A stretch of 58,681 nt of DNA from a virus (IMGVR_UViG_3300025687_000049:1-58681); one strand, 5' to 3'. Positions 17,109-30,161 are shown, counted from the first letter of the stretch. Notes: generated by a model not told the origin, from the sequence alone. Program-made: numbers and translations.

Positions 17109-18448
17109 CAGTACCCACTTACTAAGTCTTGAGGTTCCCATAGATCTTCGAAATCATCCATGTCAGCCCATACTGTTGATGCTAATTGGTCCACGTAAGC
17201 GACTGCATCAGGACCATCATCATGTGACAAAGGGTCACCGAGGTCTGAGCACTGGTCAAGGAACCACTGATTCCACGGTCCCTCTACAAGCTTGACCATC
17301 CCTCTCTGAGCCCTACCTTGTAGTGCCCAAACTATTCGATCTAACTTCTTCTGGTTACCGTGCTTTAAGTCATGTGGGGTAATGAACCGGTTAAGCCGGC
17401 GCATCTCATCTTCAAGATACGGGAGGACAGCGTTCTTAAGCGCCCCTTGTTCAATACCTAAGGTACATCCCGGGTGTTGTGAGCAGGTGCGAACGATACG
17501 TAGGGCTACTTCCCTTACGTCCCAATGACCGTGCTCTATGTTCAGCACGTACCATCCTTCTGGTCCTACCCATGTAACAGCAATAACGGTCTCATCAGAC
17601 CGCGGCTTGTGTTTACCATCCGACTTCGCATATCCAGCTAAGTCTACGGTGACTACAACATTACCTTGTGGGAGTTTCTTGTCTTTTACGATCTCAAACC
17701 ACTCGGGTTTAAGATGTTTTCCGGATCCTGATACGAAGCTGGCTTCCAGCTCCTGCCGGATGTGGTCTCTTGATCCACCTCGGCCGGCGAGTACCCTCTT
17801 GAGCTCGTTGCGAGCCAGGAGTGGGTTGTCTACGGACTTAAAGTGGAAAGCTTCCCACTCATCCCATGGACTATCCATCCCCATCTCAACTGGATCCCAG
17901 TTAGGAGGGGTAGGCTTGTCGATCGCACCCATAAAGAGTTTGTAAAAGTGGTTTTTCCCCTTCGGCGTACCGATGAAGAGTGCATCTCCTTCTACATCCA
18001 TCAAGGCAGGTTCTATGATCTCTTCCCAGACCATTTCCTTCATATCCGCGTACTCATCGAGTACAACGTATGAATAACCCTCACCACGTAGAGAATCTGG
18101 GTTATCCGCCCCTTTGATGAATATTTGTCTACCCGAGATTAGCTCGATCCACCCATCATTTACGTTTTCACGTTTGATGAACCCTCCCTGCTTCTGGTAC
18201 CCGAGTAGAGTACGCAATTTAGGCCACATCACACGACGGGCCTGGTCAGCAGTGGGGGCTACATAGTAGACCTTGTTTTCTGGGGTTAGTTTGTACCCTT
18301 TGTGGGTGTTTTGGAGGGCTGCAAGCCCGAGCATGGCAGCTGCGAAATGCGACTTTCCAAAACGTCTTCCCGCTGCAACCACCTTAAAGCGAGCCTTACT
18401 ATTGTAAATAGAGACTTGCCCGGGGTGCAGGGATACGTCAAGCTCCAT
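17108..18448 (-). CDS. terL: Terminase large subunit
   Basis: AGRRFGKS Walker A, LRG...VVLDEYA Walker B, IGTPKGKN, HDDGPDA nuclease motif. Confidence 0.95.
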   Translation of the reverse strand: MELDVSLHPGQVSIYNSKARFKVVAAGRRFGKSHFAAAMLGLAALQNTHKGYKLTPENKVYYVAPTADQARRVMWPKLRTLLGYQKQGGFIKRENVNDGWIELISGRQIFIKGADNPDSLRGEGYSYVVLDEYADMKEMVWEEIIEPALMDVEGDALFIGTPKGKNHFYKLFMGAIDKPTPPNWDPVEMGMDSPWDEWEAFHFKSVDNPLLARNELKRVLAGRGGSRDHIRQELEASFVSGSGKHLKPEWFEIVKDKKLPQGNVVVTVDLAGYAKSDGKHKPRSDETVIAVTWVGPEGWYVLNIEHGHWDVREVALRIVRTCSQHPGCTLGIEQGALKNAVLPYLEDEMRRLNRFITPHDLKHGNQKKLDRIVWALQGRAQRGMVKLVEGPWNQWFLDQCSDLGDPLSHDDGPDAVAYVDQLASTVWADMDDFEDLWEPQDLVSGY

Positions 18449-18660
18449 TACCTACGGGTAATGCCCATCGCTTTATCAGCAGCGGCTCGAGCGGCCGCGG
18501 CCGCATCTTGGCGACTAGAGATAGCACGTGATGCTTTCCCCGCTTGCCCACCAACATAACGCGAAGATGCTTGACGAGCATTCGCATTATTGAGCTTTCG
18601 CTTAGCACTATCGGTCATCTCGACCGGTTTGTGCTCTGATCCATCAACTTTCTTAACCAT
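18448..18660 (-). CDS. Small basic hypothetical protein
   Basis: Coupled ORF (TAATG overlaps). Confidence 0.5.
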   Translation of the reverse strand: MVKKVDGSEHKPVEMTDSAKRKLNNANARQASSRYVGGQAGKASRAISSRQDAAAAARAAADKAMGITRR

Positions 18661-18836
18661 TAAGTACGTCCCTTACCTCGGCTAGTACTTTGGTTGTCGG
18701 ATTGACCAGACTTACCCTGAAAAGACGGGGGCTTATGTAAGCGGTGCTTGGTCGGGCCTTTACCGGAGATGTTTCCACCACCAGATTGAATTCCAGAGCC
18801 ACTAGCGTCCGGAGTTTGGTTTGATTGATTAGCCAT
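18660..18836 (-). CDS. Small Gly/Ser/Lys-rich hypothetical protein
   Basis: GAGGA RBS, coupled ORF. Confidence 0.45.
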   Translation of the reverse strand: MANQSNQTPDASGSGIQSGGGNISGKGPTKHRLHKPPSFQGKSGQSDNQSTSRGKGRT

Positions 18837-19221
18837 TTGTATCCTCATGGTCTATGATTTCGGCCTCTTCTATCTCTAGATCGGAGGTCGATAGGTTTTT
18901 GATCCGAATAATAATTTCGGGATTATCCTCTCCAGCATCTGATTCGGTCTTAGCGTTCGAAACGAACTTGTCAAAAATCAGTTTTGCCGCCTGCACATTC
19001 CCTTCGAGAGCCTCTGCAGCCATACTTGCGAAGATAGCCTTGATCGTTTCAGGATCTACAGCTTCTCGTAAGGCTAGCTCAGCCTGCTCTTTCAGCTCAG
19101 TGATGCGGTTCTTAGCGCCCTTAGGACGACCTTTGGGGTTACCAGAAACCCCCTTGACGAATTGTCCTGAGGAAGATCGGATCACCTCCTTATTTGTATT
19201 GTCTTTCACAGCCTCTCCCAA
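18829..19221 (-). CDS. terS: Terminase small subunit (DUF5681-like)
   Basis: GQFVKGVSGNPKGRPKGAKN motif, G...AAK; upstream of terL. Confidence 0.75.
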   Translation of the reverse strand: MGEAVKDNTNKEVIRSSSGQFVKGVSGNPKGRPKGAKNRITELKEQAELALREAVDPETIKAIFASMAAEALEGNVQAAKLIFDKFVSNAKTESDAGEDNPEIIIRIKNLSTSDLEIEEAEIIDHEDTNG

Positions 19222-19249
19222 AGCTTGCGTAGCCAGCGCCAGAAGCGAA

Positions 19250-19591
19250 TTAAGAGGCCTCTAATACCGGGGGGAGCGGGGCTACTCCGTCTGTAACGGT
19301 AAAACCCACCGTATTTGACAGGGCACTCTCATCACCATCGATATCTATAGCAGTCAGCGCGATAACATTGCGCCCATCCGGGAAATTATCTAATGGAGCC
19401 TCGTATTGATTCTCCCCAACCAAGGTACCGACAACAATATAGAAAAAATCAGTCTCTTTAGAGATATTCTCGTTGTCAGAACGGTACAGATTGTAGTTTA
19501 AGGGTCCGTTTACCGGAGTCCCATCGACATTCTCAGTAGGTGCGGTCCAGCGTACTGTCCCTGGGTTCACACCCTTTTCAATATTAGCCAC
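19250..19591 (-). CDS. Single FN3-like domain protein (possible capsid decoration)
   Basis: W.AP.EN.DG, Y.LY, TA.D..G.ES..S motif. Confidence 0.65.
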   Translation of the reverse strand: MANIEKGVNPGTVRWTAPTENVDGTPVNGPLNYNLYRSDNENISKETDFFYIVVGTLVGENQYEAPLDNFPDGRNVIALTAIDIDGDESALSNTVGFTVTDGVAPLPPVLEAS

Positions 19592-19887
19592 TATTTTCTC
19601 CTTGAGAAGATGTTACGTATCCTACGTCCGATAGCCCCTAACTTGTAGGATCCTAACGGTTTACCGACCCTAAAGGCGGTTTTATCCTTGATTCTTGCGT
19701 GGTAGAACTTACCTTTCGACCTAGCAGTGAGGAAATCGAGCGAAAGCTCCTTTGGAATACCACCCCATACGTATTCTGGGTACTGTTTACGCTTATTGAA
19801 CTCTATATGCAGCTCTTGCGTAATTGTATTGTAACCAATCCGGCGTATTGCCTCACTATTGGTTATGTCTGTGTACAGGAGTGGCAT
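19591..19887 (-). CDS. KTSC domain protein
   Basis: S.AI..IGY.....L.IEF.....Y...G.P......F..A.SKG.F.H..IK. Confidence 0.8.
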   Translation of the reverse strand: MPLLYTDITNSEAIRRIGYNTITQELHIEFNKRKQYPEYVWGGIPKELSLDFLTARSKGKFYHARIKDKTAFRVGKPLGSYKLGAIGRRIRNIFSRRK

Positions 19888-19956
19888 GTTAGGCAGGCTT
19901 CCTTGCCGCAGTCAAATGTTTTGACATTGATCGTGCGTGGATCCAGTGACGAGAAC

Positions 19957-20295
19957 TCAGCGATCGGCATTCAGCACGAAGCCCTCTTGATCAAGTGCTT
20001 GTGCTGCCTTACGCAGCCTGGCTGTTGGCGCAGGCTTCCTCGCCCGACTGAGAAGAGCCTTAATGACTTCGTCGTCGATAAGGTCTTCAAAAAGAATTTC
20101 CGGTAGGCCTATTGCACCTTCCGGGAGGGGTAGATCATCAATTGCTCGACCTGAGGAAAGAATCGTCGTCTTCGAGCGGGTCTTGGATAAGGCTTCCATC
20201 TCCAGTCGATTCACATGCCTCAAGATTGGTGCGTTCGAGGATCTCGTTGACTTGTTCCAGAATTCTTTGCTGGACGACTCTTCGCTGTCGCTCAC
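19957..20295 (-). CDS. Hypothetical protein
   Basis: ORF in late operon orientation. Confidence 0.45.
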   Translation of the reverse strand: MSDSEESSSKEFWNKSTRSSNAPILRHVNRLEMEALSKTRSKTTILSSGRAIDDLPLPEGAIGLPEILFEDLIDDEVIKALLSRARKPAPTARLRKAAQALDQEGFVLNADR

Positions 20296-20297
20296 GT

Positions 20298-20477
20298 CTA
20301 CGATCTGCGGACGTTTTTCCCATGAGGGATGTTCTTTTGGTAATCGTTGTTCTCAGAGTCACGTCCACTACGGAATGCGTCGGACTTCCGATCTGTAGCA
20401 GAGCTATTCCCACCAGAAGCGTTACCACCTCCAGACTGGTTCATGTGATCTGTTGACTGTCCTTTTCGGGATGCCAT
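20298..20477 (-). CDS. Small hydrophilic hypothetical protein
   Basis: Start reassigned to ATG 20477 (AAGGA RBS). Confidence 0.5.
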   Translation of the reverse strand: MASRKGQSTDHMNQSGGGNASGGNSSATDRKSDAFRSGRDSENNDYQKNIPHGKNVRRS

Positions 20478-20792
20478 AGTTAGTTTCCTTTGGGGTTGGG
20501 ATCTCTCGGGGGTTTTAACCCGGAGATCAAGTTCGCATGTGCGTTTAGTATGGGGAGTTGGGAAGTGCAGGTAATGATCGATAAGTACCGACATATGTGG
20601 AGTCAATGTCCCCTTTGCGGGGACTTGGAGTACATTCGGTACATGAGGTACCTCCAGGAACTCCAGACAGACTTATCCTATAAATTTAAGTAATACGTAT
20701 TTGTGAAACAAATACAAAACCCGAAGGGTGAAACTTAAGCGTAAGCGTAACCGTTCGTTATATCATAGATACAACTCACTTTACATACACTG

Positions 20793-20833
20793 AATATTAC
20801 TATTATCGGAAAAACAGAACACTTGTCAACCCC
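20793..20833 (-). promoter_or_regulatory. Phage-specific promoter copy C (late arm)
   Basis: GGGGTTGACA-N15-CGATAATAGTAATATT, same motif and spacing as 26794 and 30457. Confidence 0.75.
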
Positions 20834-21258
20834 TAAAAGTGAAACTTTTTTGTAACAAAGTGTTACAGACTGAAACATATTGAAATAAATACCTACTTCT
20901 AACACCTAGAAGTTATCCAGTTTTTCTCCACTTTGGGTTACGAAAAACAGGATTCCATATATTTACTCTATTTTTTGTATACAAATCAACTACTTAACCC
21001 CCAACCTAAGAAAGTCTACTCCCCTGTAATTATCTTATTCTGCCTGACCAGAATTAGGTTCATATGTCGATCGAATTGTATAGCCTGACTTGACTTTTTC
21101 ATTTCTCGTTCCCTAGTGCTGCTACCGCAGAAAAAACCGCCTGGGTATAAGGGATGCCCCTCCTTAGAACAAAATGATCTAAGAAATTTCTTGACATGGG
21201 GAAGAGACTGTGGCTCAACTGTTCTGCAATAGCGCGGTTGCACATCAACTAGTATCTG

Positions 21259-21274
21259 TGTTTCACGTGGAACA
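21259..21274. promoter_or_regulatory. parS: parS-consensus palindrome
   Basis: TGTTTCACGTGGAACA (reverse complement TGTTCCACGTGAAACA) fits the chromosomal parS consensus TGTTNCACGTGAAACA. Confidence 0.65.
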
Positions 21275-21380
21275 TATCCGCAACTGTTGGGTTGCACATT
21301 GAATGTAAGTAGAATGTAGGGGGGAAGAGGGGGGTAGGGGGGATATACCTTTTAGTTATAAGCTTATAACAACACGGTAT

Positions 21381-21408
21381 TAGACATCCTCAACAAAAGG
21401 CGTATAAT
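21381..21408 (+). promoter_or_regulatory. Host sigma70-type early promoter
   Basis: TAGACA-N16-TATAAT; predicted start ~21415. Confidence 0.65.
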
Positions 21409-21414
21409 GATTAC

Positions 21415-21755
21415 ATCAGCTCGGGGATTACACCTCGACTCGGTAAGCACGGTAGGCCTCGCGGTCAGATCCACATAGCCAGAGTAGCAGTTGATCAGGG
21501 TCCCTCGAACGTAGCACAAATCGAGGTCTGGCGAGTAGGTCACCTTAGGATTACAGAGTTTATCCGAAGTGGCACATAGGATGAAAGCCGGGGGTTAAAA
21601 TAATAGCGTGTTGGTAGGTAGAACTACCAGTTGGATATAAGGATACATCCAATTCTGCCGGGCATCGCTGAGCATGTTGTCCCTAGTCTTCACTTAGGAG
21701 CGTAAGCTTCCAGTGTGTGAGGATCCTAGCGATTTAGTGATTCAACGGTGAAGAT
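21415..21755 (+). ncRNA. Structured 5' leader of early transcript
   Basis: No ORF >=60 aa; several hairpins (TCGGGG/CCTCGA, CCTCGA/TCGAGG, TGGTAG/CTACCA, TTGGAT/ATCCAA, GTCTTCAC/GTGAAGAT). Confidence 0.45.
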
Positions 21756-21925
21756 TCATATCATATCTCTCCAAAAACCTACTGATGACTCGAGAGAGAA
21801 CGGCTAGCAATAGCTGTTGATGCCGTGGTTGGCATCGAAACAAACGCAGCAATGCGGGGATGGAGTGGTTGGGATGCTTTCTAAGTATGCCGATCAGACC
21901 ATCCCAAAATTGTATAGGTAACCAT
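21756..21925 (+). ncRNA. Type I hammerhead ribozyme with inserted helices; predicted cleavage after 21914
   Basis: Stem I ACCTA(21777-81)/TAGGT(21915-19); CTGATGA 21782-88; stem II GATGCC/GGCATC then GAAA 21837-40; stem III ACAA/TTGT; GTA triplet 21912-14; loop II GTGGTT pairs with AACCAT 21920-25. Confidence 0.85.
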
Positions 21926-21938
21926 TGAGAATGATATT

Positions 21939-22127
21939 ATGACTACACAATTACACACCAAAGTGGATCTATTTGCCGGCACTCAGTACGAGGGCTTGAC
22001 ATACAACCAGATCCGTAGGATGCTTACACCTGCTCAGGTTCGAGTGCTACAGCAATTGAATAAGCGAGGAAAAAAGATCGCATCTCACCAGAATGCAATG
22101 CAACGTGTAATCCAGTCCTATCGGTAG
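21939..22127 (+). CDS. Early hypothetical protein
   Basis: First ORF after ribozyme cleavage site. Confidence 0.6.
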   Translation: MTTQLHTKVDLFAGTQYEGLTYNQIRRMLTPAQVRVLQQLNKRGKKIASHQNAMQRVIQSYR

Positions 22128-22160
22128 ATAGGTCTGTTTAGGTAAACCAGGAGACTAAAT

Positions 22161-22412
22161 ATGACTATTAAGACTACTAAAATCGAAGTGAAAAGGTTTG
22201 AAGCCCAGCAAATTTGCAGCGCACTATTTGACCGTGCTCGCCAATCAATTGAGGAAGAAAACTTCCATAATTGCGCTGAAGAGCTCGAGATCGCAGCAAA
22301 ATTTGTCCGGGCAATCAATCCTTCCTATCGCAAGACATACCGAGATGCGATAGATATCATATACTTCCAGAGAGCTTGCAGAATGGAGGATATAGACTAC
22401 GTAGAGCCTTAG
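22161..22412 (+). CDS. Early hypothetical protein
   Basis: Preceded by repeat element/RBS. Confidence 0.7.
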   Translation: MTIKTTKIEVKRFEAQQICSALFDRARQSIEEENFHNCAEELEIAAKFVRAINPSYRKTYRDAIDIIYFQRACRMEDIDYVEP

Positions 22413-22444
22413 GGCTCTCGTTTAGGATAACCAAGGAGATATAT

Positions 22445-22618
22445 ATGAATATTGTACGAGAAACAGAAGCGGATTTTTCACTTGACAGCTTCGAGATTGA
22501 GCATTTACGGGAAAATCTGCCGGTGATCGGCGTATGTGAGCTGACAGACTTCGAAGCCTTTCACTTAGGCTTGATCGATGAAGATCTACTGTTCAGGCTA
22601 CGTACTGAACTCCTCTAG
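22445..22618 (+). CDS. Early hypothetical protein (start reassigned)
   Basis: AAGGAG RBS then ATG 22445. Confidence 0.7.
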   Translation: MNIVRETEADFSLDSFEIEHLRENLPVIGVCELTDFEAFHLGLIDEDLLFRLRTELL

Positions 22619-22652
22619 GGAGTTCGGTTTAGGAATAACCACGGAGATTGAT

Positions 22653-23153
22653 ATGAAAGAGACACAACAATGGGAACAGCTTCAAGATACCCTTAATGGG
22701 GAGCAGAATTTCTGTATAATCGAGGAGCGAAAAGCGCCGATATTGTATGCGGTACTGCTACAGATCAAAAAGATCGATGGCATACCTGTTACACATCGGA
22801 ATGGGAAGGAAGGTCCCGAGGTTATTGTTGGTAATGGGTACTATGTCCAGAAATACCTGGAACTGCTATCCGATAGACCAAAATATACCAGAGCTGACTT
22901 CCAAGTCCAGATGGGACTTTTACTAGGCTACTCGTTTGAAGATTGTGTGGAGTTTGCAAAGAATCCACCCGATTGTGATTGCGAGAAATGCGGAGGTCCT
23001 AACGATCGCATTGAGCTTGGTCCAGTAGAGTATGAAGGTACAAGACCATACCAAAAGGCCACCTACCAAGGTGCCGCATATGGGACCTTATATCACCCGG
23101 ATCCTGAGCTGATAAAGCACAGTCCAGGGATACAAAATTGGTCAAAACCCTAG
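22653..23153 (+). CDS. Early hypothetical protein with CxCxxC motif (start reassigned)
   Basis: GGAG RBS then ATG 22653; MGLLLGY and CDCEKC. Confidence 0.7.
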   Translation: MKETQQWEQLQDTLNGEQNFCIIEERKAPILYAVLLQIKKIDGIPVTHRNGKEGPEVIVGNGYYVQKYLELLSDRPKYTRADFQVQMGLLLGYSFEDCVEFAKNPPDCDCEKCGGPNDRIELGPVEYEGTRPYQKATYQGAAYGTLYHPDPELIKHSPGIQNWSKP

Positions 23154-23200
23154 TGTTTTAGCCCTCTAACGGGGGCGTTTAGGTAACCAAGGAGATAGAT

Positions 23201-23809
23201 ATGTACCAGAAAGAAATGCGGAAAATCCAAGCCGGGTTTGCTGCTCAACCAGGTGAGACACTAGAACAAACAGTTAGGTTTGTACTCGCCACCATCCAAC
23301 AACAATTTTCTACTGTGGAGGACATTCTCCATACATGGGCGTTGCAGGGTGAAATGGCTCCCACTATGTGGGGCGCTAAGAGAAAGGGTGTTCGCTATAT
23401 TGAGAAGCATTCCCAGGAATTGGCCGCTAAATTGAAGGGGTGCGACACTGTGGAAGCAGTGGATACACTCTTGACAGTCCCCGGGCTGAACACGGTAAAG
23501 GCAAGCTTTGTTGCCCAGTGTCTCGGCTTTGGTGTTGGGTGTATAGATACCCACAATGCGAGGATCCATGGCGTAAACGTCAAATCCTACGCGGTTACTA
23601 AGAACTTGACAGCGAAGACTAGACTTGCTAAAATCAAGTCTTACATTGCATTATGTCAAGGACTAGGAGGATCCGCGGTGTTGTGGGACTCATGGTGCGA
23701 GCTTATCGCCGATAAGCAGAGCGCACACTTCGATGACGCGGAGGCTGTGAGTGCATACCATTCACACTGCATACTAAAGCATGTAAAACATGATCCTGCC
23801 AGATGGTAG
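23201..23809 (+). CDS. HhH-GPD DNA glycosylase-like protein
   Basis: LLTVPGLNTVKASFV...CIDTH helix-hairpin-helix plus conserved Asp. Confidence 0.55.
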   Translation: MYQKEMRKIQAGFAAQPGETLEQTVRFVLATIQQQFSTVEDILHTWALQGEMAPTMWGAKRKGVRYIEKHSQELAAKLKGCDTVEAVDTLLTVPGLNTVKASFVAQCLGFGVGCIDTHNARIHGVNVKSYAVTKNLTAKTRLAKIKSYIALCQGLGGSAVLWDSWCELIADKQSAHFDDAEAVSAYHSHCILKHVKHDPARW

Positions 23810-23838
23810 GATCGTCTAGGATAACCAAGGAGAATGAT

Positions 23839-24072
23839 ATGAAACTGACCGCAGAAAACCTTCGCAATATGCAAAGCAACCTGTTTACCATCGATGACGA
23901 TCTAGGGGAGACTATCAAACGTATCCCTAATGAATACGCCTATGTGGTGTTCATTGCTGCAAATACTGTCCTCGAGTCCTTAGCCGTGATGGTTGAGGAG
24001 GCAGAAGAGGAAGAGCTGACAGCTTTCGAGCTTCGAGAGCTGGAAGCCCAAGAGAAGGGAGGTGGAGAATGA
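23839..24072 (+). CDS. Early acidic hypothetical protein (start reassigned)
   Basis: AAGGAG RBS then ATG 23839. Confidence 0.7.
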   Translation: MKLTAENLRNMQSNLFTIDDDLGETIKRIPNEYAYVVFIAANTVLESLAVMVEEAEEEELTAFELRELEAQEKGGGE

Positions 24073-24185
24073 GCCACGATGACGACAATGTCCCTTTCTG
24101 GGACGCGGTGTTGATGGTCACTAGTAGTTATGTTAGTGTGATCATTGTTGTGCTGTTTACAGCATGGTTACTAGGGCAGCTTTAA
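24069..24185 (+). CDS. Small single-pass membrane peptide (38 aa)
   Basis: ATGA overlap, GGAG RBS, hydrophobic core; stop lies in the next element's hairpin. Confidence 0.5.
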   Translation: MSHDDDNVPFWDAVLMVTSSYVSVIIVVLFTAWLLGQL

Positions 24186-24218
24186 GCTGTCCGTCTAGGA
24201 ATAAACCAGGAGATTGAT

Positions 24219-24503
24219 ATGACCGAAAATGACCAAAGACTGTATGGAACCATAATCGACACCCTCGACGATAACCAGATCCTTGATCTAGTGCTTGTCA
24301 TGGGAGTTATGCCGTGGTATAGTGGTATCCCTCACAGTGTATATGTGAGTCTAAAAGAGTTCCTTGCCGACCAGGGACTAGATACCACCAAGTACGTGGT
24401 GAAAGCCTCTGTAGATTGGGAGGAAGTTGAAGCCGCTCGACCCGAAGATGGTAGTCCATGGGTAACCGTGGAAGCAGCTGATATTAGCGTAGAAGTCGAA
24501 TAG
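24219..24503 (+). CDS. Early hypothetical protein
   Basis: Preceded by repeat element/RBS. Confidence 0.7.
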   Translation: MTENDQRLYGTIIDTLDDNQILDLVLVMGVMPWYSGIPHSVYVSLKEFLADQGLDTTKYVVKASVDWEEVEAARPEDGSPWVTVEAADISVEVE

Positions 24504-24590
24504 ACTACACCGCGGAGAATTCCACTCCGTGGGCTACCTACATCCTAAGCATGATGTAAAACTGCTGTATAGATAACCAGGAGAAATGAT

Positions 24591-25007
24591 ATGACTAAGT
24601 TAACACGCGAATTGATCGAAAAAGAATACGCTAGAATTGAGGAAAAGAAGCGTAATCTCGAGGTCTTCGAGCCTCGTCCGATCCAAGCACAGTACGATGC
24701 TTTGTTCCAAGCCTTATATGACGTGGATCCGAACATCAACATTAAGGCCAATAGTAACGACGGTGAGTTCGATATCCGCTTCGCTGGAGACAGTGGGGTG
24801 TACCGGTGGGTATACTCAACTTTACGTGAGCATGGCTGGGAGCCAGAAGATCGTATCTCCGATGATACGCGGAACTACTTCACTACGTGGTACAGAAAAG
24901 AGGGCCTTCCATCTTTGTATGTAACCTTCTCGAGCACCGTATGCCAGCGTGTCCAGGTAGGAACCCGGACGGTAGAAGAGCCAATCTATGAGCTTGTGTG
25001 TGAGTAG
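24591..25007 (+). CDS. Early hypothetical protein
   Basis: Preceded by repeat element; C.RVQVG......P.YE..C C-terminus. Confidence 0.7.
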   Translation: MTKLTRELIEKEYARIEEKKRNLEVFEPRPIQAQYDALFQALYDVDPNINIKANSNDGEFDIRFAGDSGVYRWVYSTLREHGWEPEDRISDDTRNYFTTWYRKEGLPSLYVTFSSTVCQRVQVGTRTVEEPIYELVCE

Positions 25008-25053
25008 TTAACCTGGGCTCCGGCCCAGTTTAGGAATAACCAAGGAGAATGAT

Positions 25054-25206
25054 ATGGAAAGTAACCAAAACGAAAACCTTTTGTATGCAATTAAGCAGAT
25101 TGCGGCCCAGTTCTCTGGTGAGCGTAGGTTCACTGGGAGCGTAGAGTTCACTGTAGATCTGCGTCTCATAATCAACGCCCAGGACATCGAGGAGGAAAGC
25201 AATTGA
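25054..25206 (+). CDS. Early hypothetical protein (50 aa, not in ORF track)
   Basis: Repeat element/RBS then MESNQNENLL...ESN*. Confidence 0.65.
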   Translation: MESNQNENLLYAIKQIAAQFSGERRFTGSVEFTVDLRLIINAQDIEEESN

Positions 25207-25352
25207 GCGATTTTGTAGCAGCCTTTTTTATGATGATCTTTCTGTGTGCAGGCTTGCTAGTCTTATGGCTAGCGAGTATACTGAACTCAGTGACCCTCGT
25301 ATTTATAGGCCTAGCCATCATAGCAATCAGCACAAAAGGAGCTAAGGGATAG
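25203..25352 (+). CDS. Small membrane protein (49 aa)
   Basis: TTG start overlapping upstream TGA, GAGGAGG RBS, two hydrophobic stretches. Confidence 0.45.
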   Translation: MSDFVAAFFMMIFLCAGLLVLWLASILNSVTLVFIGLAIIAISTKGAKG

Positions 25353-25391
25353 GGGCGAAAGCCCCCGTCTAGGAATAACCAGGAGATAGAT

Positions 25392-25571
25392 ATGAAAGAG
25401 CAGTTAACAAATAAAGAGATCGTTAATTGGCTGGTATCAAATGATATTGGCCTGAGCGATGTGATCGACGCAGTGATTGACGTAAATGGGATCATTGGTG
25501 TAGGATTGATAACCCTCGCAGAGGGATTGTCGCAGTATGTCCAGGACCAGATAACACCACAAGGAGATTAA
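25392..25571 (+). CDS. Early hypothetical protein (59 aa, not in ORF track)
   Basis: Repeat element/RBS then MKEQLTNKEI...QGD*. Confidence 0.65.
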   Translation: MKEQLTNKEIVNWLVSNDIGLSDVIDAVIDVNGIIGVGLITLAEGLSQYVQDQITPQGD

Positions 25572-25572
25572 G

Positions 25573-25692
25573 ATGGGTGGTCACTTGTATTGGAGCTGTG
25601 CCGTATGGGTTGTACAGTACGGTGGGTTCACACAATATCAGTTGGATGTTGCCACTACGTGGGCACTCCAGATCCTTTCTGAGGAGGCGTAG
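25573..25692 (+). CDS. Small hypothetical protein (39 aa)
   Basis: AAGGAG RBS, fills the gap exactly. Confidence 0.45.
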   Translation: MGGHLYWSCAVWVVQYGGFTQYQLDVATTWALQILSEEA

Positions 25693-25881
25693 ATGAAGAC
25701 GCTACTGGTAGTGCTGTGTGCGTTTAATACGCACTGTGAGCACGAGTGGGAAGCGGTGTATGCCGCGGATAACTTAAGGGAGTGCAGAGCACAAGGGAAG
25801 GCTCAATTCCCTGAATACGAGCGCCTATGGCTCTGCGTGAAAGATATTCAAGTTAAAGATGAATGGAGCGAGTTCGAATGA
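25693..25881 (+). CDS. Small Cys-containing hypothetical protein
   Basis: GAGGAGG RBS. Confidence 0.55.
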   Translation: MKTLLVVLCAFNTHCEHEWEAVYAADNLRECRAQGKAQFPEYERLWLCVKDIQVKDEWSEFE

Positions 25882-26072
25882 ATGATATAGTACACATCAC
25901 ACAGATGATATCCCTATGTGGGCAACGATTGGACCGTATCCAATCAGACGAGCAGCGGGTACGGATCCTACAGGAGCTGGATGACCTTCTCTTCGAAGCA
26001 GAAGGGTATCTCAAGGATGAACTTTACCACTACGAGGAGACCATCGACGGTCAGCACGGCTCACCTTTCTAG
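25878..26072 (+). CDS. Hypothetical protein
   Basis: ATGA overlap, GGAG RBS. Confidence 0.55.
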   Translation: MNDIVHITQMISLCGQRLDRIQSDEQRVRILQELDDLLFEAEGYLKDELYHYEETIDGQHGSPF

Positions 26073-26134
26073 GTACCCATATAGGGAACCTTCGTACCCG
26101 AAAAGGGTACGTCTAGATAACCTTGGAGAATGAT

Positions 26135-26824
26135 ATGACAGAACTGAGTAGTTTTCAGCTCTACAGCATTGACCTAGATGCCGCGGAGATTGAACACAAG
26201 ACCAAACACCAGCTCGCCGGCTTACATGCTGAAGCCTTGAAGGGAAACCAGAAGGCGTGGCATGATCTTTGGTTGTACGGGACCAAACTGGTCCTGAAGA
26301 TATGCAACAAGCTCTCGTCTATGGACTTACTCCGTTGTGAGTACGAAGAGGCTGTAGCTGAGGGGAATGCTGCGATCGGAGAGGCACTGACCCGGTGGAA
26401 CCCTAAGAAGTCCAGCTTCGGTACCTGGGTATGGATCCGGGTTCGAGGTGCAATCCTCGATGAGTCGAAGAAGTGGTCTCCTGAACCAGGTGTAGTCCCT
26501 GCCGAGGTGACTCTATCAGATGACCAGGAGCATGGTGATGACGAGTACAACAATTCTCTCTATGATCTGGCTGACGAGGAATATCTGGGTGAAGATCCTG
26601 CTCTGGATCTCGATAAAGCCCGGTTGAGAAGAGTCCTTCCAGCACTACCTGAGAGGGAGTTGAAGTACGTAACCCTGTACTACTTTGAGGACCAGACTCT
26701 CAATGAGATAGCCGATCTGGAGGGTATTAGCCGGAATATGGTACACAAGATTCTTAAGCGAGCTGAGGCTCGTTTAGGTGAATTGTTATTGGGGGGGTTA
26801 ACAATCTCCGCGTTCGAGCGATAA
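26135..26824 (+). CDS. Sigma-70 family RNA polymerase sigma factor
   Basis: Region 2 (EG...I.EA..RWNP....FGTW..IRVRGAILD) and region 4 (LPERE...V.LYY....TL.EIA...GIS...V....RA..RL). Confidence 0.88.
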   Translation: MTELSSFQLYSIDLDAAEIEHKTKHQLAGLHAEALKGNQKAWHDLWLYGTKLVLKICNKLSSMDLLRCEYEEAVAEGNAAIGEALTRWNPKKSSFGTWVWIRVRGAILDESKKWSPEPGVVPAEVTLSDDQEHGDDEYNNSLYDLADEEYLGEDPALDLDKARLRRVLPALPERELKYVTLYYFEDQTLNEIADLEGISRNMVHKILKRAEARLGELLLGGLTISAFER

Positions 26825-26834
26825 TAGTAATATT
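26794..26834 (+). promoter_or_regulatory. Phage-specific promoter copy A (primase/helicase block)
   Basis: GGGGTTAACA-N15-CGATAATAGTAATATT. Confidence 0.75.
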
Positions 26835-26924
26835 AGTATTAGTATAAGTGTAATTAGTAGTTTAGGGATGCCCCAAAGCATCCCATAATTATAAGTAATT
26901 ACATAAAGTTTAGGAGATATAGAT

Positions 26925-27224
26925 ATGTCTGATAGACATGAATTGTTTGAAGAACTGGAAGCCTTTCACCCTTTGTGGTTCAAGGTATACCATAATCTAG
27001 AAGAGGCTGTTGAAGCAGCCTCAATAGAGACTCCATACATCATCGACTTATGGGAAGACTACCTACTGACAACGGAACGTATCGTAGATGGAGTCCCAGA
27101 CATCAAGAAGTACATCGAGGAGTGTCAAGAAGCGGAGCAGAATGCTCCTGAGTTTCAGAGAGCTGTATCGACTATCCGGTATGTTAACCGGATCGATGAT
27201 AACAAGTTCTACTTCTCGGAGTAG
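26925..27224 (+). CDS. Hypothetical acidic protein
   Basis: AGGAG RBS. Confidence 0.65.
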   Translation: MSDRHELFEELEAFHPLWFKVYHNLEEAVEAASIETPYIIDLWEDYLLTTERIVDGVPDIKKYIEECQEAEQNAPEFQRAVSTIRYVNRIDDNKFYFSE

Positions 27225-27237
27225 AGGATATTTGTTT

Positions 27238-28065
27238 ATGAGTAAACATGCTGTAAAGTTATTAGCGCAAGGACTGTCAATAGGGGAGGATACCGGATTT
27301 GTAGAGTGTCCATTCTGTATGGCTGCACATGAAGAGAAATTCAGTGTTACCCGTACGGTAACCGGACTACTGTATAACTGCTTCCGAGCATCATGTGGCG
27401 CTTCTGGGTTTATCCCTACCGGATACTGGGATGACGGACCAGCCGCAAGGACCACACCGAAGCCTAAGAACAGACCTTACATAAACGCCCTCTACCTACT
27501 GACAGATATGGATACTACGTTCTTTAAGGAAGAATGGGGTGTAGATCCCATAGACTTCAAGGTAACATCAAAAGATGAGTATGCCTTACCTATCCTACAT
27601 CCTGTAGGGTTCCCCCGGGGATGGGTAATACGGCAACCGGTTTGGAAAGGGGTAACCTCCTGCCCAAGAAAGGGAGTCCCGAATAAACCAAAGGCGCTGA
27701 ACTATAAAGATCGGCATGACCACAGTCGTCTATCCTGGTCACCATGGAGCAGGGTCGTTAACCCTCACCAGGTAGTGGTAGTAGAGGATATAATCTCTGC
27801 CTGGAAGATAGGGCAGTGTTATCGGGATGCTCGTGGTGTCGCCCTCAACGGAGCTAAGATGGGGTATCCTGAGGCAGCTGAGATTGCGAAGGAGAACCCT
27901 ACTTGCGTCACGATATGGTTAGACCCTGATGTAACAAACCAGGCGTACAAGATCCTCCACAGGTGGGGATTGAGTTTCAACTATTGCCGGGTAGTGACCA
28001 GTGATGCAGATCCAAAGGATATGACCCCAAAGCAAATAGAGGAGATATTACATGTGGAGTGGTAA
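27238..28065 (+). CDS. DNA primase (Zn finger + TOPRIM)
   Basis: CPFC...CFRASC, VVVEDIISA, WLDPD, DPKD; start reassigned to 27238. Confidence 0.85.
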   Translation: MSKHAVKLLAQGLSIGEDTGFVECPFCMAAHEEKFSVTRTVTGLLYNCFRASCGASGFIPTGYWDDGPAARTTPKPKNRPYINALYLLTDMDTTFFKEEWGVDPIDFKVTSKDEYALPILHPVGFPRGWVIRQPVWKGVTSCPRKGVPNKPKALNYKDRHDHSRLSWSPWSRVVNPHQVVVVEDIISAWKIGQCYRDARGVALNGAKMGYPEAAEIAKENPTCVTIWLDPDVTNQAYKILHRWGLSFNYCRVVTSDADPKDMTPKQIEEILHVEW

Positions 28066-28276
28066 ACTATTTGTATCAAAAAAACAGAAGAGAAAGGAGT
28101 TGGAAAGTAGACTAGGTCCGAGAGAGTTTATATCGTGGTCGATCGATCGTGGATATGGGTCTTGGTATCAAGACATATACAGTATCCCAGTCCTATGGGG
28201 TGATCTATGTCATGATGACGAGCCACGTTTTCTGACTAGACGAACAGCAAACTTCTACCCCCCCATCAATGCGTAA
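28052..28276 (+). CDS. Hypothetical protein
   Basis: GAGGAG RBS; fills the primase-helicase gap. Confidence 0.5.
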   Translation: MWSGKLFVSKKQKRKELESRLGPREFISWSIDRGYGSWYQDIYSIPVLWGDLCHDDEPRFLTRRTANFYPPINA

Positions 28277-28288
28277 GGAGGATATTGG

Positions 28289-29506
28289 ATGTTAGATGGT
28301 AAGGTGATCGAGGCTGTACTACAGTCTCGGGATGCCTACGAGAAGGTGCGGCAGCACATAGACATAGAGGAGCTTTCGCTCCAGGGACAGACGTGGTTCC
28401 CGTTAATCAAAGGGTGGTACGAAGGAGACCCTAAGGCACGTAGTGTGGATCGATCGATCCTGTTAGAGAAGGGGAAGAGAGAACTTCCCGAGGCACATAT
28501 AGATACCCTGGTTGGGTGGTTAAACGACCTCCCTGAGGTTGACTCTCCGACCAACGTAGTCAAAGACTTACTGGAGTTGAAGAGATACCAGAAAGGGAAT
28601 GCATTAAGCCAAGCGATACAAGCGAGACAAAATGACAAGATTGATACTCTCCTTACCGAGTACAGTGAGCTTAGAAACGCAACTTCACTCGGTACTTCGG
28701 AAATCCATTGGACCATGGACGACGAGGACATGGATTCCTTGCTCGATAAAAGAAACCTTATCAAGGTTGGACCTTCCCGCCTCAACGATAAGTTACTGGG
28801 TGGAGTCATACCAGGGACATCCATCCTCATCTTCGGAAGACCTGAAGCTGGTAAGACTCTCTTCACAGTCAACATGGTTGCAGGATTCCTTAAATACGGA
28901 CATCGGGTCCTGTACATTGGAAATGAGGAAGGTACCTACAGAACCAGGAAGCGAATCGTCAACAATCTGGCTGACGCTGACAATGACGCTTATGAACTCG
29001 ATCCCGAAGGTGTTCTTGCCAAAGCTAAGTCCAGAGGCCTTGATGAGTTATACATCCTCACCATGCATCCAGGATCCATCCCCGAGATCGAAGACATCGT
29101 CAAAGATGTTAAGCCGGCTGTGGTCGTTGTGGATCAAATACGGAACCTGGACCTACCTGGTAAGGGAGGGGATAGTATTACCTCGAAGCTGGGGGAACTC
29201 GGAACACAAATGAGGAACATGGCTGGTCGCCATAAGTTTGTATCTGTGAGTGTAACCCAGGCTGGAGATAAGACAGAAAGACATGGACAGGAGCCACCAC
29301 CTTGGCTTACAATGAGCGATATTGCAGACAATCGTACAAGCTTGGCTGCACAGTTCGATGTGATCTTAGGGGTTGGGTGTACCCAGGCACTGAGAGATTC
29401 TAATACAAGAGCTATCAGTATATGTAAAAACAAGATGTCCGACCAGGAGGATTCCCATGAAGGGTTCATCGTCCAGGTTGATGTCAGAAAAAGTAAGGTG
29501 AGGTAA
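28289..29506 (+). CDS. DnaB-like (SF4) replicative helicase
   Basis: GRPEAGKT Walker A, YIGNEE, VVVVDQ Walker B, VTQA, KNK. Confidence 0.9.
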   Translation: MLDGKVIEAVLQSRDAYEKVRQHIDIEELSLQGQTWFPLIKGWYEGDPKARSVDRSILLEKGKRELPEAHIDTLVGWLNDLPEVDSPTNVVKDLLELKRYQKGNALSQAIQARQNDKIDTLLTEYSELRNATSLGTSEIHWTMDDEDMDSLLDKRNLIKVGPSRLNDKLLGGVIPGTSILIFGRPEAGKTLFTVNMVAGFLKYGHRVLYIGNEEGTYRTRKRIVNNLADADNDAYELDPEGVLAKAKSRGLDELYILTMHPGSIPEIEDIVKDVKPAVVVVDQIRNLDLPGKGGDSITSKLGELGTQMRNMAGRHKFVSVSVTQAGDKTERHGQEPPPWLTMSDIADNRTSLAAQFDVILGVGCTQALRDSNTRAISICKNKMSDQEDSHEGFIVQVDVRKSKVR

Positions 29507-29607
29507 TGAGGCTTACATTTACTTCCAAGGACCGGAAGTATTTGGAATAAGTGGTTGTGGTAGTGATTTCTATGAATACAGAGAATTAGAGAAGGAGTTA
29601 GAAAATA

Positions 29608-29961
29608 ATGGCGGATAACACTTATTACTCGGAGTATGTGCGGGATATGTTTCACAACACTCCGACTGCAGATGATGATGCTAGGATCCTGAGTAACTTC
29701 GGGTCTCTACATGCAGCATGTGGATTAGCTGGAGAGGCAGGAGAGGTCCTGGATCTATTCAAGAAGTGGATCTTTACCCAGAAGAAGTATGATCGTGATG
29801 CATTGATCAAGGAGCTGGGTGATGTAGAGTTTTATCTGCAAGCCCTGCGGAATGAGCTGAAGATAACCCGGGACGAGATCTTGGATGCCAACATGCTAAA
29901 ACTGGCTGCACGACATCCAGAAGGGTTCGAAAATTCAAATTACTATACAGGTGACAAATGA
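29608..29961 (+). CDS. MazG-like nucleotide pyrophosphohydrolase
   Basis: GLAGEAGEV....KK...ELGDV..Y...N..KL..R. Confidence 0.85.
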   Translation: MADNTYYSEYVRDMFHNTPTADDDARILSNFGSLHAACGLAGEAGEVLDLFKKWIFTQKKYDRDALIKELGDVEFYLQALRNELKITRDEILDANMLKLAARHPEGFENSNYYTGDK

Positions 29962-30161
29962 AAGCAGAAATTCCAGCAGAGTTAGTTAGTGCCTTGGTTG
30001 GGCAAGCGATTGTCTTGTGGCAAGAGGCCTATGCTACTGATCCGGATCTCCGGGATGGGTTGTATACGTACGAGCCTTATACACTGGCTGAGACCGTCTT
30101 TTGTATGGGGTATATAGCAGGGAACTTGAATATACAACCAGGTTCAGGAGAAGTCCATTGA
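29958..30161 (+). CDS. Hypothetical protein
   Basis: Coupled ORF. Confidence 0.5.
   Translation: MKAEIPAELVSALVGQAIVLWQEAYATDPDLRDGLYTYEPYTLAETVFCMGYIAGNLNIQPGSGEVH

Follow-up and report, generated by a model that had tools for sequence, protein, structure and literature searches.

A conserved hammerhead-like leader RNA and its candidate remote substrate sites in the early region of a tailed phage

The early polycistronic mRNA of phage T7 is cut between genes by RNase III, which leaves a 3' hairpin on the upstream message. Martick et al. are said to have described, in 2008, a discontinuous hammerhead in mammalian CLEC2 3' untranslated regions, in which the core is canonical and serves a single substrate site. 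Descriptions of small self-cleaving ribozymes present them as cis-acting, and natural trans-cleaving examples have been sought (PMC6765202). Hammerheads of viral origin include prophage arrays with a full self-cleaving ribozyme at each site and a variant that precedes, by 13 nt, the first open reading frame (ORF) of a halovirus early transcript, whose mapped 5' end lies within 3 nt of the cleavage site (PMC3088659); the same text gives pseudoknots linking the regions of stems I and II as common in natural hammerheads and as needed for fast cleavage. Here we describe, in the 58,681-bp virus record IMGVR_UViG_3300025687_000049 (hereafter the window, meaning the whole stretch of DNA analyzed), a hammerhead-like leader RNA of the early operon and ten downstream intergenic elements that resemble its own substrate strand. 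Literature searches, which did not extend to subscription journals or supplements, brought up no account of a multi-target hammerhead in nature.

Sequence comparison with two homologous copies, in the related phage loci L099 and L210, indicates that the leader is a real, conserved, structured RNA and a new hammerhead-like variant, and multi-site processing of the early transcript by this RNA is, as a prediction, the best single explanation of the locus, with a probability of roughly 0.45. The proposed cuts would fall between early genes with a 3' hairpin upstream, as in T7, although RNase III is a protein and cleaves long double-stranded sites, whereas the hairpins here measure 4-9 bp. As reported for the CLEC2 hammerhead, a single transcript carries both enzyme and substrate strands at a distance from each other; here, however, there are 11 sites, at 0.13-4.3 kb from the core. 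The leader RNA lies in the early leader just upstream of the first ORF, like the HF1/HF2 halovirus hammerhead, and shares with type I hammerheads CUGAUGA, GAAA, an A15.1-U16.1 pair and a GUH triplet in the same block order, as well as a potential 5-bp pseudoknot between loop II and an extension of stem I (PMC3088659). Unlike type I hammerheads, it has a 30-nt two-hairpin insertion between A9 and stem II, a stem I that contains the Shine-Dalgarno (SD) sequence and start codon, a 70-nt branched stem III, no Rfam match, and ten extra substrate-like sites without a core of their own. The proposed role, the conversion of long phage transcripts into operon- or gene-length mRNAs, is that put forward for prophage arrays of cis hammerheads flanking genes, but one enzyme strand and eleven substrate strands here take the place of a complete ribozyme per site (PMC3088659). 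As in the non-circularly permuted hammerheads, the connectivity goes beyond the three classic types and is missed by standard models; in those RNAs the blocks are uninterrupted, whereas here block C is interrupted (Eckert et al., 2023; PMC10085705).

Within the leader, the arm, the stem I strand, CUGAUGA and GAAAC all lie in 21752-21919. The parts of the leader and of the site at its 3' end (site 1) are the following, hp1 to hp4 denoting its four short hairpins:

21416-21751, + strand: upstream leader part, non-coding and weakly structured (z-score -1.84), aligning poorly with L099 and L210
21756-21772, + strand: guide arm of 17 nt, an anti-SD and anti-start stretch that can pair with GGAGA..AUGAUAUGA in the elements
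21777-21788, + strand: stem I enzyme strand ACCUA at 21777-81 (CCUA 21778-81) and core heptamer CUGAUGA at 21782-88, invariant in 3/3 leaders
21789-21818, + strand: 30-nt insertion, with hp1 of 3 bp and an invariant GAGA loop (21789-98) and hp2 of 6-7 bp and a GNRA loop (21800-17)
21819-21841, + strand: hp3, candidate stem II, with loop GUGGUU at 21825-30, then GAAAC (G12 A13 A14 A15.1 C15.2) at 21837-41
21842-21914, + strand: stem III region, with ACAA 21840-43 facing UUGU 21910-13, hp4 at 21845-56, and H17 = A21914
21857-63 / 21899-905, + strand: covarying 7-bp stem GGGAUGG/CCAUCCC that closes the long hairpin in the stem III region
21912-21918, + strand: site 1, GUA/UAGG
21915-21941, + strand: downstream part of site 1, with UAGGU (stem I), AACCA, a weak SD and the AUG of gene 1; predicted cut 21914/21915

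Window positions 21736-21937 align with L099 2151-2353 at 70% identity, and the third copy, in L210, was found by a pattern scan; the homology of the leader rests on these three sequences (L359 is the same record as L210). Invariant across them are AUCUCUCC, CCUACUGAUGA, GAGA, GUGGU, UCGAAAC and GU-UAGGUAA. In the four hairpins the sequences differ and the pairing is kept, with 60 of 60 cells paired and compensatory changes in 15 of 20 pairs; none of 500 shuffles was as good, and slid controls gave at most 2 compensatory pairs. The insertion, 30 nt long in all three leaders, forms 10/10 pairs in 3/3 sequences, nine of the ten having changed on both sides, and hp3 has compensatory changes in 4/6 pairs with invariant G-C and A-U closing pairs. 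Folded alone, each leader adopts the same minimum-free-energy (MFE) architecture (z-scores -6.8, -6.7 and -3.7), in which the arm pairs with the SD/AUG of gene 1 and a 5-bp ACCUA/UAGGU helix, hp1-hp4 and the long hairpin are formed. When the enzyme is folded without a target, its anti-SD UCUCUC instead pairs with GAGAGA of hp1, replacing that hairpin (window 21766-21797); equivalent 5-bp pairings can be read from the sequences of L099 and L210, and such pairing could, on this modeling, be a switch whose closed state lasts until the arm is engaged by a target.

Elements and leader occur together in 3/3 phages whose sequence extends upstream of the first element, the other element-bearing contigs ending before the leader. 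A preceding sequence-only reading of this DNA, which proposed ribozyme-driven processing, would have been contradicted by related phages with elements but no ribozyme, or by a lack of covariation between ribozyme and sites. Neither was seen: the three phages carry both parts, and covariation is present in the leader helices and also links the guide arm to the translation-initiation regions (TIRs) of the phage that carries it. In further searches for the leader, a covariance model (R1) run over 80 + 82 + 28 sources recovered it only in the window, L099 and L210; pattern scans of IMG/VR, four in number (44, 8, 18 and 10 stretches), gave L210 as the only homologue; a GTDB scan, with at least 120 stretches, gave no homologue among the matches listed; and the records behind L013 and L011 gave no match.

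The 5' to 3' order of the parts is that of a type I hammerhead, namely ACCUA, CUGAUGA, the inserted hp1 and hp2, hp3, GAAA, ACAA, a branched stem III domain, UUGU, H17 and UAGGU. Core positions C3 U4 G5 A6 N7 G8 A9 are supplied by CUGAUGA (21782-88), G12 A13 A14 by GAAA (21837-40), and the A15.1-U16.1 pair by the last base of that motif and U21913, with the same arrangement in L099 and L210. The NUH triplet of site 1 reads GUA, GUU and GUU in the three phages; stem III at this site has 4 bp, its 15.3:16.3 pair being A-U, A-U and G-C; and AACCA, which falls in an internal loop where stem I is extended, has a sequence complementary to that of loop II, so that a tertiary contact of the two is possible. 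The heptamer by itself is no more frequent than chance would have it (7 CTGATGA in the window vs 9.6 +/- 3.0 in shuffles). All coordinates of the sequence-only reading proved correct (arm 21756-21772, CCUA, CUGAUGA, loop GUGGUU, GAAAC, the first GUA/UAGG and the ten GUH ends). CTGATGA occurs once on the + strand of 21400-26200, in the leader. The complete hammerhead core of that reading stands insofar as all core letters are present and invariant, but is not canonical, having the 30-nt insertion and no Rfam match. The only two other CUGANGA that could be cores near remote elements (22276 and 25679, within the same + strand interval) were rejected, both being inside genes and, on inspection, without the hairpin-GAAAC arrangement.

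In each remote element a GC-rich hairpin, whose sequence varies, is followed by GUH-UAG(G/A), a short spacer of A and U, AACC(A), GGAGA, a conserved spacer and AUG. A profile built from the 11 elements matches exactly those 11 in the window (E 1e-9 to 5e-5; next best E 0.44); all are on the + strand, within 21902-26140, and an ATG ends each of them. The ten remote elements are:

22117-22163, + strand: remote element 1, with hairpin, predicted cut site GUU/UAGG, AACCA, GGAGA and AUG 22161
22403-22447, + strand: remote element 2, AUG 22445
22607-22655, + strand: remote element 3, AUG 22653
23161-23203, + strand: remote element 4, AUG 23201, before the gene for a conserved 202-aa early protein
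23793-23841, + strand: remote element 5, AUG 23839
24174-24221, + strand: remote element 6, AUG 24219
24537-24593, + strand: remote element 7, GUA/UAGA, AUG 24591, with an ACCUAC box and a pseudoknot-like hairpin replacing the plain GC hairpin
25014-25056, + strand: remote element 8, AUG 25054
25352-25394, + strand: remote element 9, AUG 25392
26094-26137, + strand: remote element 10, GUC/UAGA, AUG 26135, before the sigma factor gene

Their GUH triplets end at 22138, 22422, 22629, 23179, 23816, 24195, 24569, 25030, 25369 and 26113. In the profile search of the window, no element precedes a middle or late gene. Between one remote element and the next lie 1-4 ORFs, so that the units are in some cases larger than one gene. 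Several conventional identities were considered for the elements. Sigma-70 promoters and intrinsic terminators were not supported: none of 21 sigma-70 promoter-like sites in 18000-30000 lies inside an element, the best being at 21381-21408, upstream of the leader, and only one of the ten hairpins (22117-22132) passes an intrinsic-terminator scan. Two others were rejected: N4-like hairpin promoters served by a virion RNA polymerase, a possibility prompted by an ORF of 2915 aa, were dropped when that ORF proved to encode a tail fibre; and for T7/SP6-like promoters there is no RNA polymerase ORF, no ORF other than the 2915-aa tail fibre exceeding 680 aa.

The helicase of the window has 242 relatives in the protein collection, and 160 loci around such relatives were covered by the element search (profile or motif scan). 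The same elements are present in L089 (10 plus one nested copy), L091 (11), L098/L099 (6), L103 (5), L013 (6) and the complete 41.9-kb phage G003 (L210 + L221; 10, including site 1). After subtraction of three coding false positives (L089 3850, G3 10206 and G3 10327) from 59 motif rows, 56 remote elements in seven phages remain. The base after GU (H17) is C in 31 of these, U in 22, A in 3 and G in none, and the stem I target reads UAGG in 44, UGGG, a wobble-compatible change, in 6, UAGA in 5 and UUGG in 1; UGGG is the prevailing form in phages of the L103 type. The hairpin, of 4-9 bp, ends 0-2 nt before GU in 52/56. GUH-UAGG is kept in 7/7 phages and AACCA in all except L013, while hairpin sequences and SD-AUG spacers differ between phages. 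Stable tetraloops (UUCG, GCAA, GAAA and GUAA) are common among the hairpin loops, a frequency given without a background comparison, and point to a function of the elements at the RNA level. Helicase relatives of 60% identity (L092, L093, L094 and L011) have ordinary intergenic regions without elements, in loci that do not cover leaders; a sigma-factor query found no relatives in IMG/VR, nor did an exact 18-mer of one element find a match there. Distant relatives of the 202-aa protein (L361 3200-6000 and L363 2900-3200) carry repeated cassettes of a hairpin, an ACC-rich tract and a conserved SD-spacer-AUG, with neither GUYUAGG nor a match to R1.

Some elements depart from the common layout. 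In L013 (161-2760), a conserved GC stands between the hairpin and GUC-UAGGU, and an ACA-rich spacer replaces AACCA, a variant that predicts a matching change in the L013 leader. In L089 (3505-3562), a second GUCUAGG lies within the loop of an element's own hairpin, directly before the regular GUC-UAGU. Element 7 precedes a 138-aa gene, and its special upstream part recurs at the equivalent position in five relatives (window 24526-24576; L089 3277-3327; L091 2593-2643; L210 12780-12830; L013 2176-2226; L103 2060-2110), where a conserved CCUA box (CCUAC in 5/6) is followed by a hairpin with loop CUGAGCAU and then by AAACUGCU; loop and tail can pair as a pseudoknot in 42/42 cells, with one compensatory A-U to G-C change (L013). 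The CCUAC box repeats the stem I strand of the leader and could mask or present that site. After the sigma gene, the AT-rich stretch 26825-26927 contains two more GUUUAGG (26860 and 26908) and a hairpin at ~26864-26886, and GGAGAUAUAGAUAUG recurs as the start region of the gene at 26925, where, however, UAGG overlaps the SD and AACCA is missing; this stretch may be a degenerate twelfth site or mark a switch to sigma-dependent transcription.

The relation between leader and remote sites was evaluated by predicted pairing. For the guide, taken as the 32 nt before the core (arm + CCUA), duplexes with the ten remote elements of the window come to -13.7 to -20.0 kcal/mol, compared with an average of -9.5 kcal/mol for the 35 other SD-bearing gene starts in the window (Mann-Whitney p 1.6e-6, which, like the p-value below, is optimistic because elements within one phage are not independent), and only 0.6% of the genome's 34-nt windows reach -17 kcal/mol with the guide. 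In 3/3 phages the arm fits the remote sites better than the cis site (means of -18.0, -16.5 and -18.0 vs -14.5, -14.7 and -14.4 kcal/mol), a preference that would not be expected of a purely cis-acting element. A phage's own guide beats two foreign guides for 23/27 elements, by a mean of 3.1 kcal/mol (Wilcoxon p 4.5e-4); the SD-AUG spacer is AUGAUAUG in the window and AAUACUUAUG in G003, and the arm differs correspondingly. These comparisons demonstrate, within the sequences at hand, that the arm co-evolves with the translation-initiation regions of the remote sites. Two-strand MFE folds with enzyme 21752-21914 (ddG -11 to -19 kcal/mol) form both CCUA:UAGG and arm:TIR and keep the substrate hairpin for 7/10 remote substrates, and loop II (UGGUU) can form at least 4 bp with 27/27 elements and at least 5 bp with 24/27, the latter being reached by 9/35 controls. 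Two other origins of the arm were rejected: as a degenerate inverted DNA copy of an element it gives a minus-strand profile match of only E 59, and as the TIR of a minus-strand gene it would serve frames that, on reading the sequence, have ~5 codons or no ATG.

The comparison has brought together a conserved, covarying leader that has all core letters in order and whose three single-stranded recognition parts are complementary to the three blocks of the elements. The earlier statement that every conserved block of the elements has a partner in the ribozyme is upheld for these three blocks; it did not stress the hairpin part, and cassettes of hairpin, A/C-rich stretch and TIR also occur in more distant relatives without GUYUAGG, so that some of the conserved blocks can be explained without a ribozyme. 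In the proposed mechanism, the ~520-nt early-operon leader would end in a hammerhead-type ribozyme of type I topology that cuts in cis after GUA at 21914, and the same three contacts, of stem I with UAGG, of the arm with the SD/start region and of loop II with AACCA, would guide cuts after GUH at ten downstream sites, either via long-range pairing within the transcript or in trans, once the leader has been released. Of stem III, the pairs A15.1-U16.1 and C15.2-G16.2 alone would form at a remote site, and the substrate hairpin abutting GU would stack where the rest of that stem would be. After each cut, the upstream mRNA would have a protective hairpin at its 3' end, and the downstream mRNA would have a 5'-OH shortly before its ribosome-binding region, which is A/C-rich and unstructured. 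With hp1 and hp2 inserted, the stem II side of the core would be a four-way junction, for which a plausible modeled geometry has hp3 still stacking, as stem II, on the G-A pairs and hp1 and hp2 stacking on each other. GU and a non-G next base are kept at 56/56 remote sites with no evident ribosome-binding role, which favors catalysis over antisense control, and we infer that the ratio of one leader to eleven sites is more in keeping with a catalyst than with an antisense RNA that acts stoichiometrically. Somewhat more tentative is the wider proposal that the leader would be the first natural small nucleolytic ribozyme to act as a guide-directed, multiple-turnover endonuclease, with eleven sites and a four-way junction, turning early RNA into stable translatable units. 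Such an RNA would resemble RNase P RNA in being a natural RNA endonuclease with many substrates (PMC6765202), and would differ from that universal enzyme, which works by hydrolysis and shape recognition, in its guide pairing, its transesterification and its encoding by a phage.

Ribozyme-driven processing, as put forward in the sequence-only reading, is supported in part, by leader conservation, covariation and arm-site co-evolution, cleavage itself being a prediction, and a number of observations weigh against it. Exactly 30 nt, in two hairpins, separate A9 from G10.1 in 3/3 leaders, so that the stem does not adjoin the core; known hammerhead alignments have at most 1-2 nt between CUGAnGA and the stems, and the insertion is unprecedented among hammerheads (PMC10085705). 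Rfam hammerhead models gave no match at the gathering threshold over the whole window, none at E<=10 over 5.4 kb and none on 166 nt, nor any match in the relatives, a result attributable to the interruption of the core by the insertion. The 5 bp of stem I vary only between A-U and G-U at one pair and hence show no covariation, and stem III has only one compensatory pair, in three sequences only. Remote sites offer only a 2-bp stem III, for which the enzyme's own 3' tail, UUGU, would compete after the cis cut; the two-strand MFE lacks CCUA:UAGG for 3/10 remote substrates; and the background for loop II is high, 23/35 controls reaching 4 bp. The cassettes of L361 and L363, without GUYUAGG, imply that the TIR and A/C-rich blocks are conserved for ribozyme-independent reasons, and elements within a genome evolve in concert, so part of their conservation has other causes.

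These last points are also those on which a cis-only ribozyme, rather unlikely in our estimate, would draw. The leader would then cut itself once, at 21914/21915, and the other ten elements would be duplicated, recombination-homogenized ribosome-binding cassettes, their hairpins being RNA stabilizers or leaky terminators, GUYUAGG being read by a host or phage protein, e.g., an endoribonuclease, and the arm being an antisense brake on translation. Genome-specific cassette variants are typical of concerted evolution, similar hairpin, A/C-rich and TIR cassettes occur in distant relatives without GUYUAGG, stem III has 4 bp with a compensatory change at site 1 vs 2 bp at the remote sites, and all natural hammerheads described act in cis (PMC6765202); nevertheless, a second nuclease recognizing exactly the ribozyme's own target sequence would be required, the 56 remote sites of the seven phages retain GUH-UAGG and AACCA (AACCA not in L013) while hairpins and SD-AUG spacers drift, and the arm matches remote TIRs better than the cis TIR in 3/3 phages. 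Catalysis would be dispensed with altogether if the leader were a sensor or scaffold (riboswitch-like, protein-binding or thermosensing) that opens and closes the SD-AUG helix of gene 1, and possibly of others, its hammerhead letters being a vestige or a coincidence. We regard this as unlikely: the arm does sequester the SD and start codon of gene 1 in the MFE of 3/3 leaders, the anti-SD of the free enzyme pairs with the SD-like GAGAGA in hp1 as a possible switch, and the insertion breaks the canonical core, with no Rfam hammerhead match, but 11 core letters, A15.1-U16.1, a non-G H17 and the stem order would all have to coincide, invariant in three phages whose early protein is 42-51% identical, known riboswitch families gave no match to the leader, and GUH beside UAGG at ten remote sites, with the abutting hairpin, would be left unexplained.

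A function of the elements as DNA-level or transcription signals (phage promoters, terminator-promoter cassettes or operators), unrelated to that of the leader, is very improbable. The phage does encode its own sigma factor (26135-26824), and each element lies just upstream of a gene and after a hairpin; yet the sigma gene is itself the last element-bearing gene, no element precedes middle or late genes, no phage RNA polymerase ORF is present, no -35/-10 pair occurs at any element, a U-tract follows only 1/10 hairpins, and only ~15 nt are conserved between hairpin and SD. The frequent stable RNA tetraloops (GNRA and UUCG, again without a background comparison) likewise argue against DNA-level signals, which would also leave the co-evolving complementary arm unexplained. 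Should processing of many sites by the leader ribozyme be borne out, one enzyme strand serving many sites would give ribozymes near phage genes a function, operon processing; guide-programmed RNA cleavage by a hammerhead would have evolved in nature; and the hammerhead core would tolerate a branched insertion beside stem II, a kind of variant that current searches would miss.

The window, rated complete, represents a tailed phage, with genes identified for the 2915-aa tail-fibre protein, portal, DnaB-like helicase, primase, family A DNA polymerase and ribonucleotide reductase. It has no match by DNA similarity to GenBank phages, and the nearest named phages share only ~38% DNA-polymerase identity. 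Structural genes run leftwards from ~18.4 kb, and a + strand block of small genes runs from 21939 to the sigma factor gene, the last gene preceded by an element, and on to the replication genes. The 202-aa early protein (23201-23809) is kept in at least 6 related phages with invariant W, C and D residues (42% identity to the window in L099, 51% in L210); comparison of the early proteins, this one included, with Pfam and PHROGs assigned no function. No ORF of at least 30 aa was found on the + strand between the early promoter and the first early gene. Two features lie upstream of the leader:

21355-21370, + strand: perfect 16-bp palindrome, directly upstream of the sigma-70-like promoter
21381-21408, + strand: sigma-70-like promoter TAGACA-16-TATAAT, with 11/12 promoter matches, the best of the region

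This promoter, ~520 nt upstream of the first early gene, is presumed to be the start of the early transcript, and the palindrome could serve as an operator through which a repressor or activator acts on the early operon. In L210 (9527-9575), which has extra half-sites upstream, palindrome and promoter recur as an almost unchanged block. Just upstream of the palindrome, the window has three runs of 6-7 G (21318-21346), and a similar G-run followed by GATAT lies near the promoter in L099 (~1815-1830). Two to three tRNA genes stand on the opposite strand upstream of the early promoter in L099 (941-1234) and L210 (8709-8868), the window having no tRNA genes.

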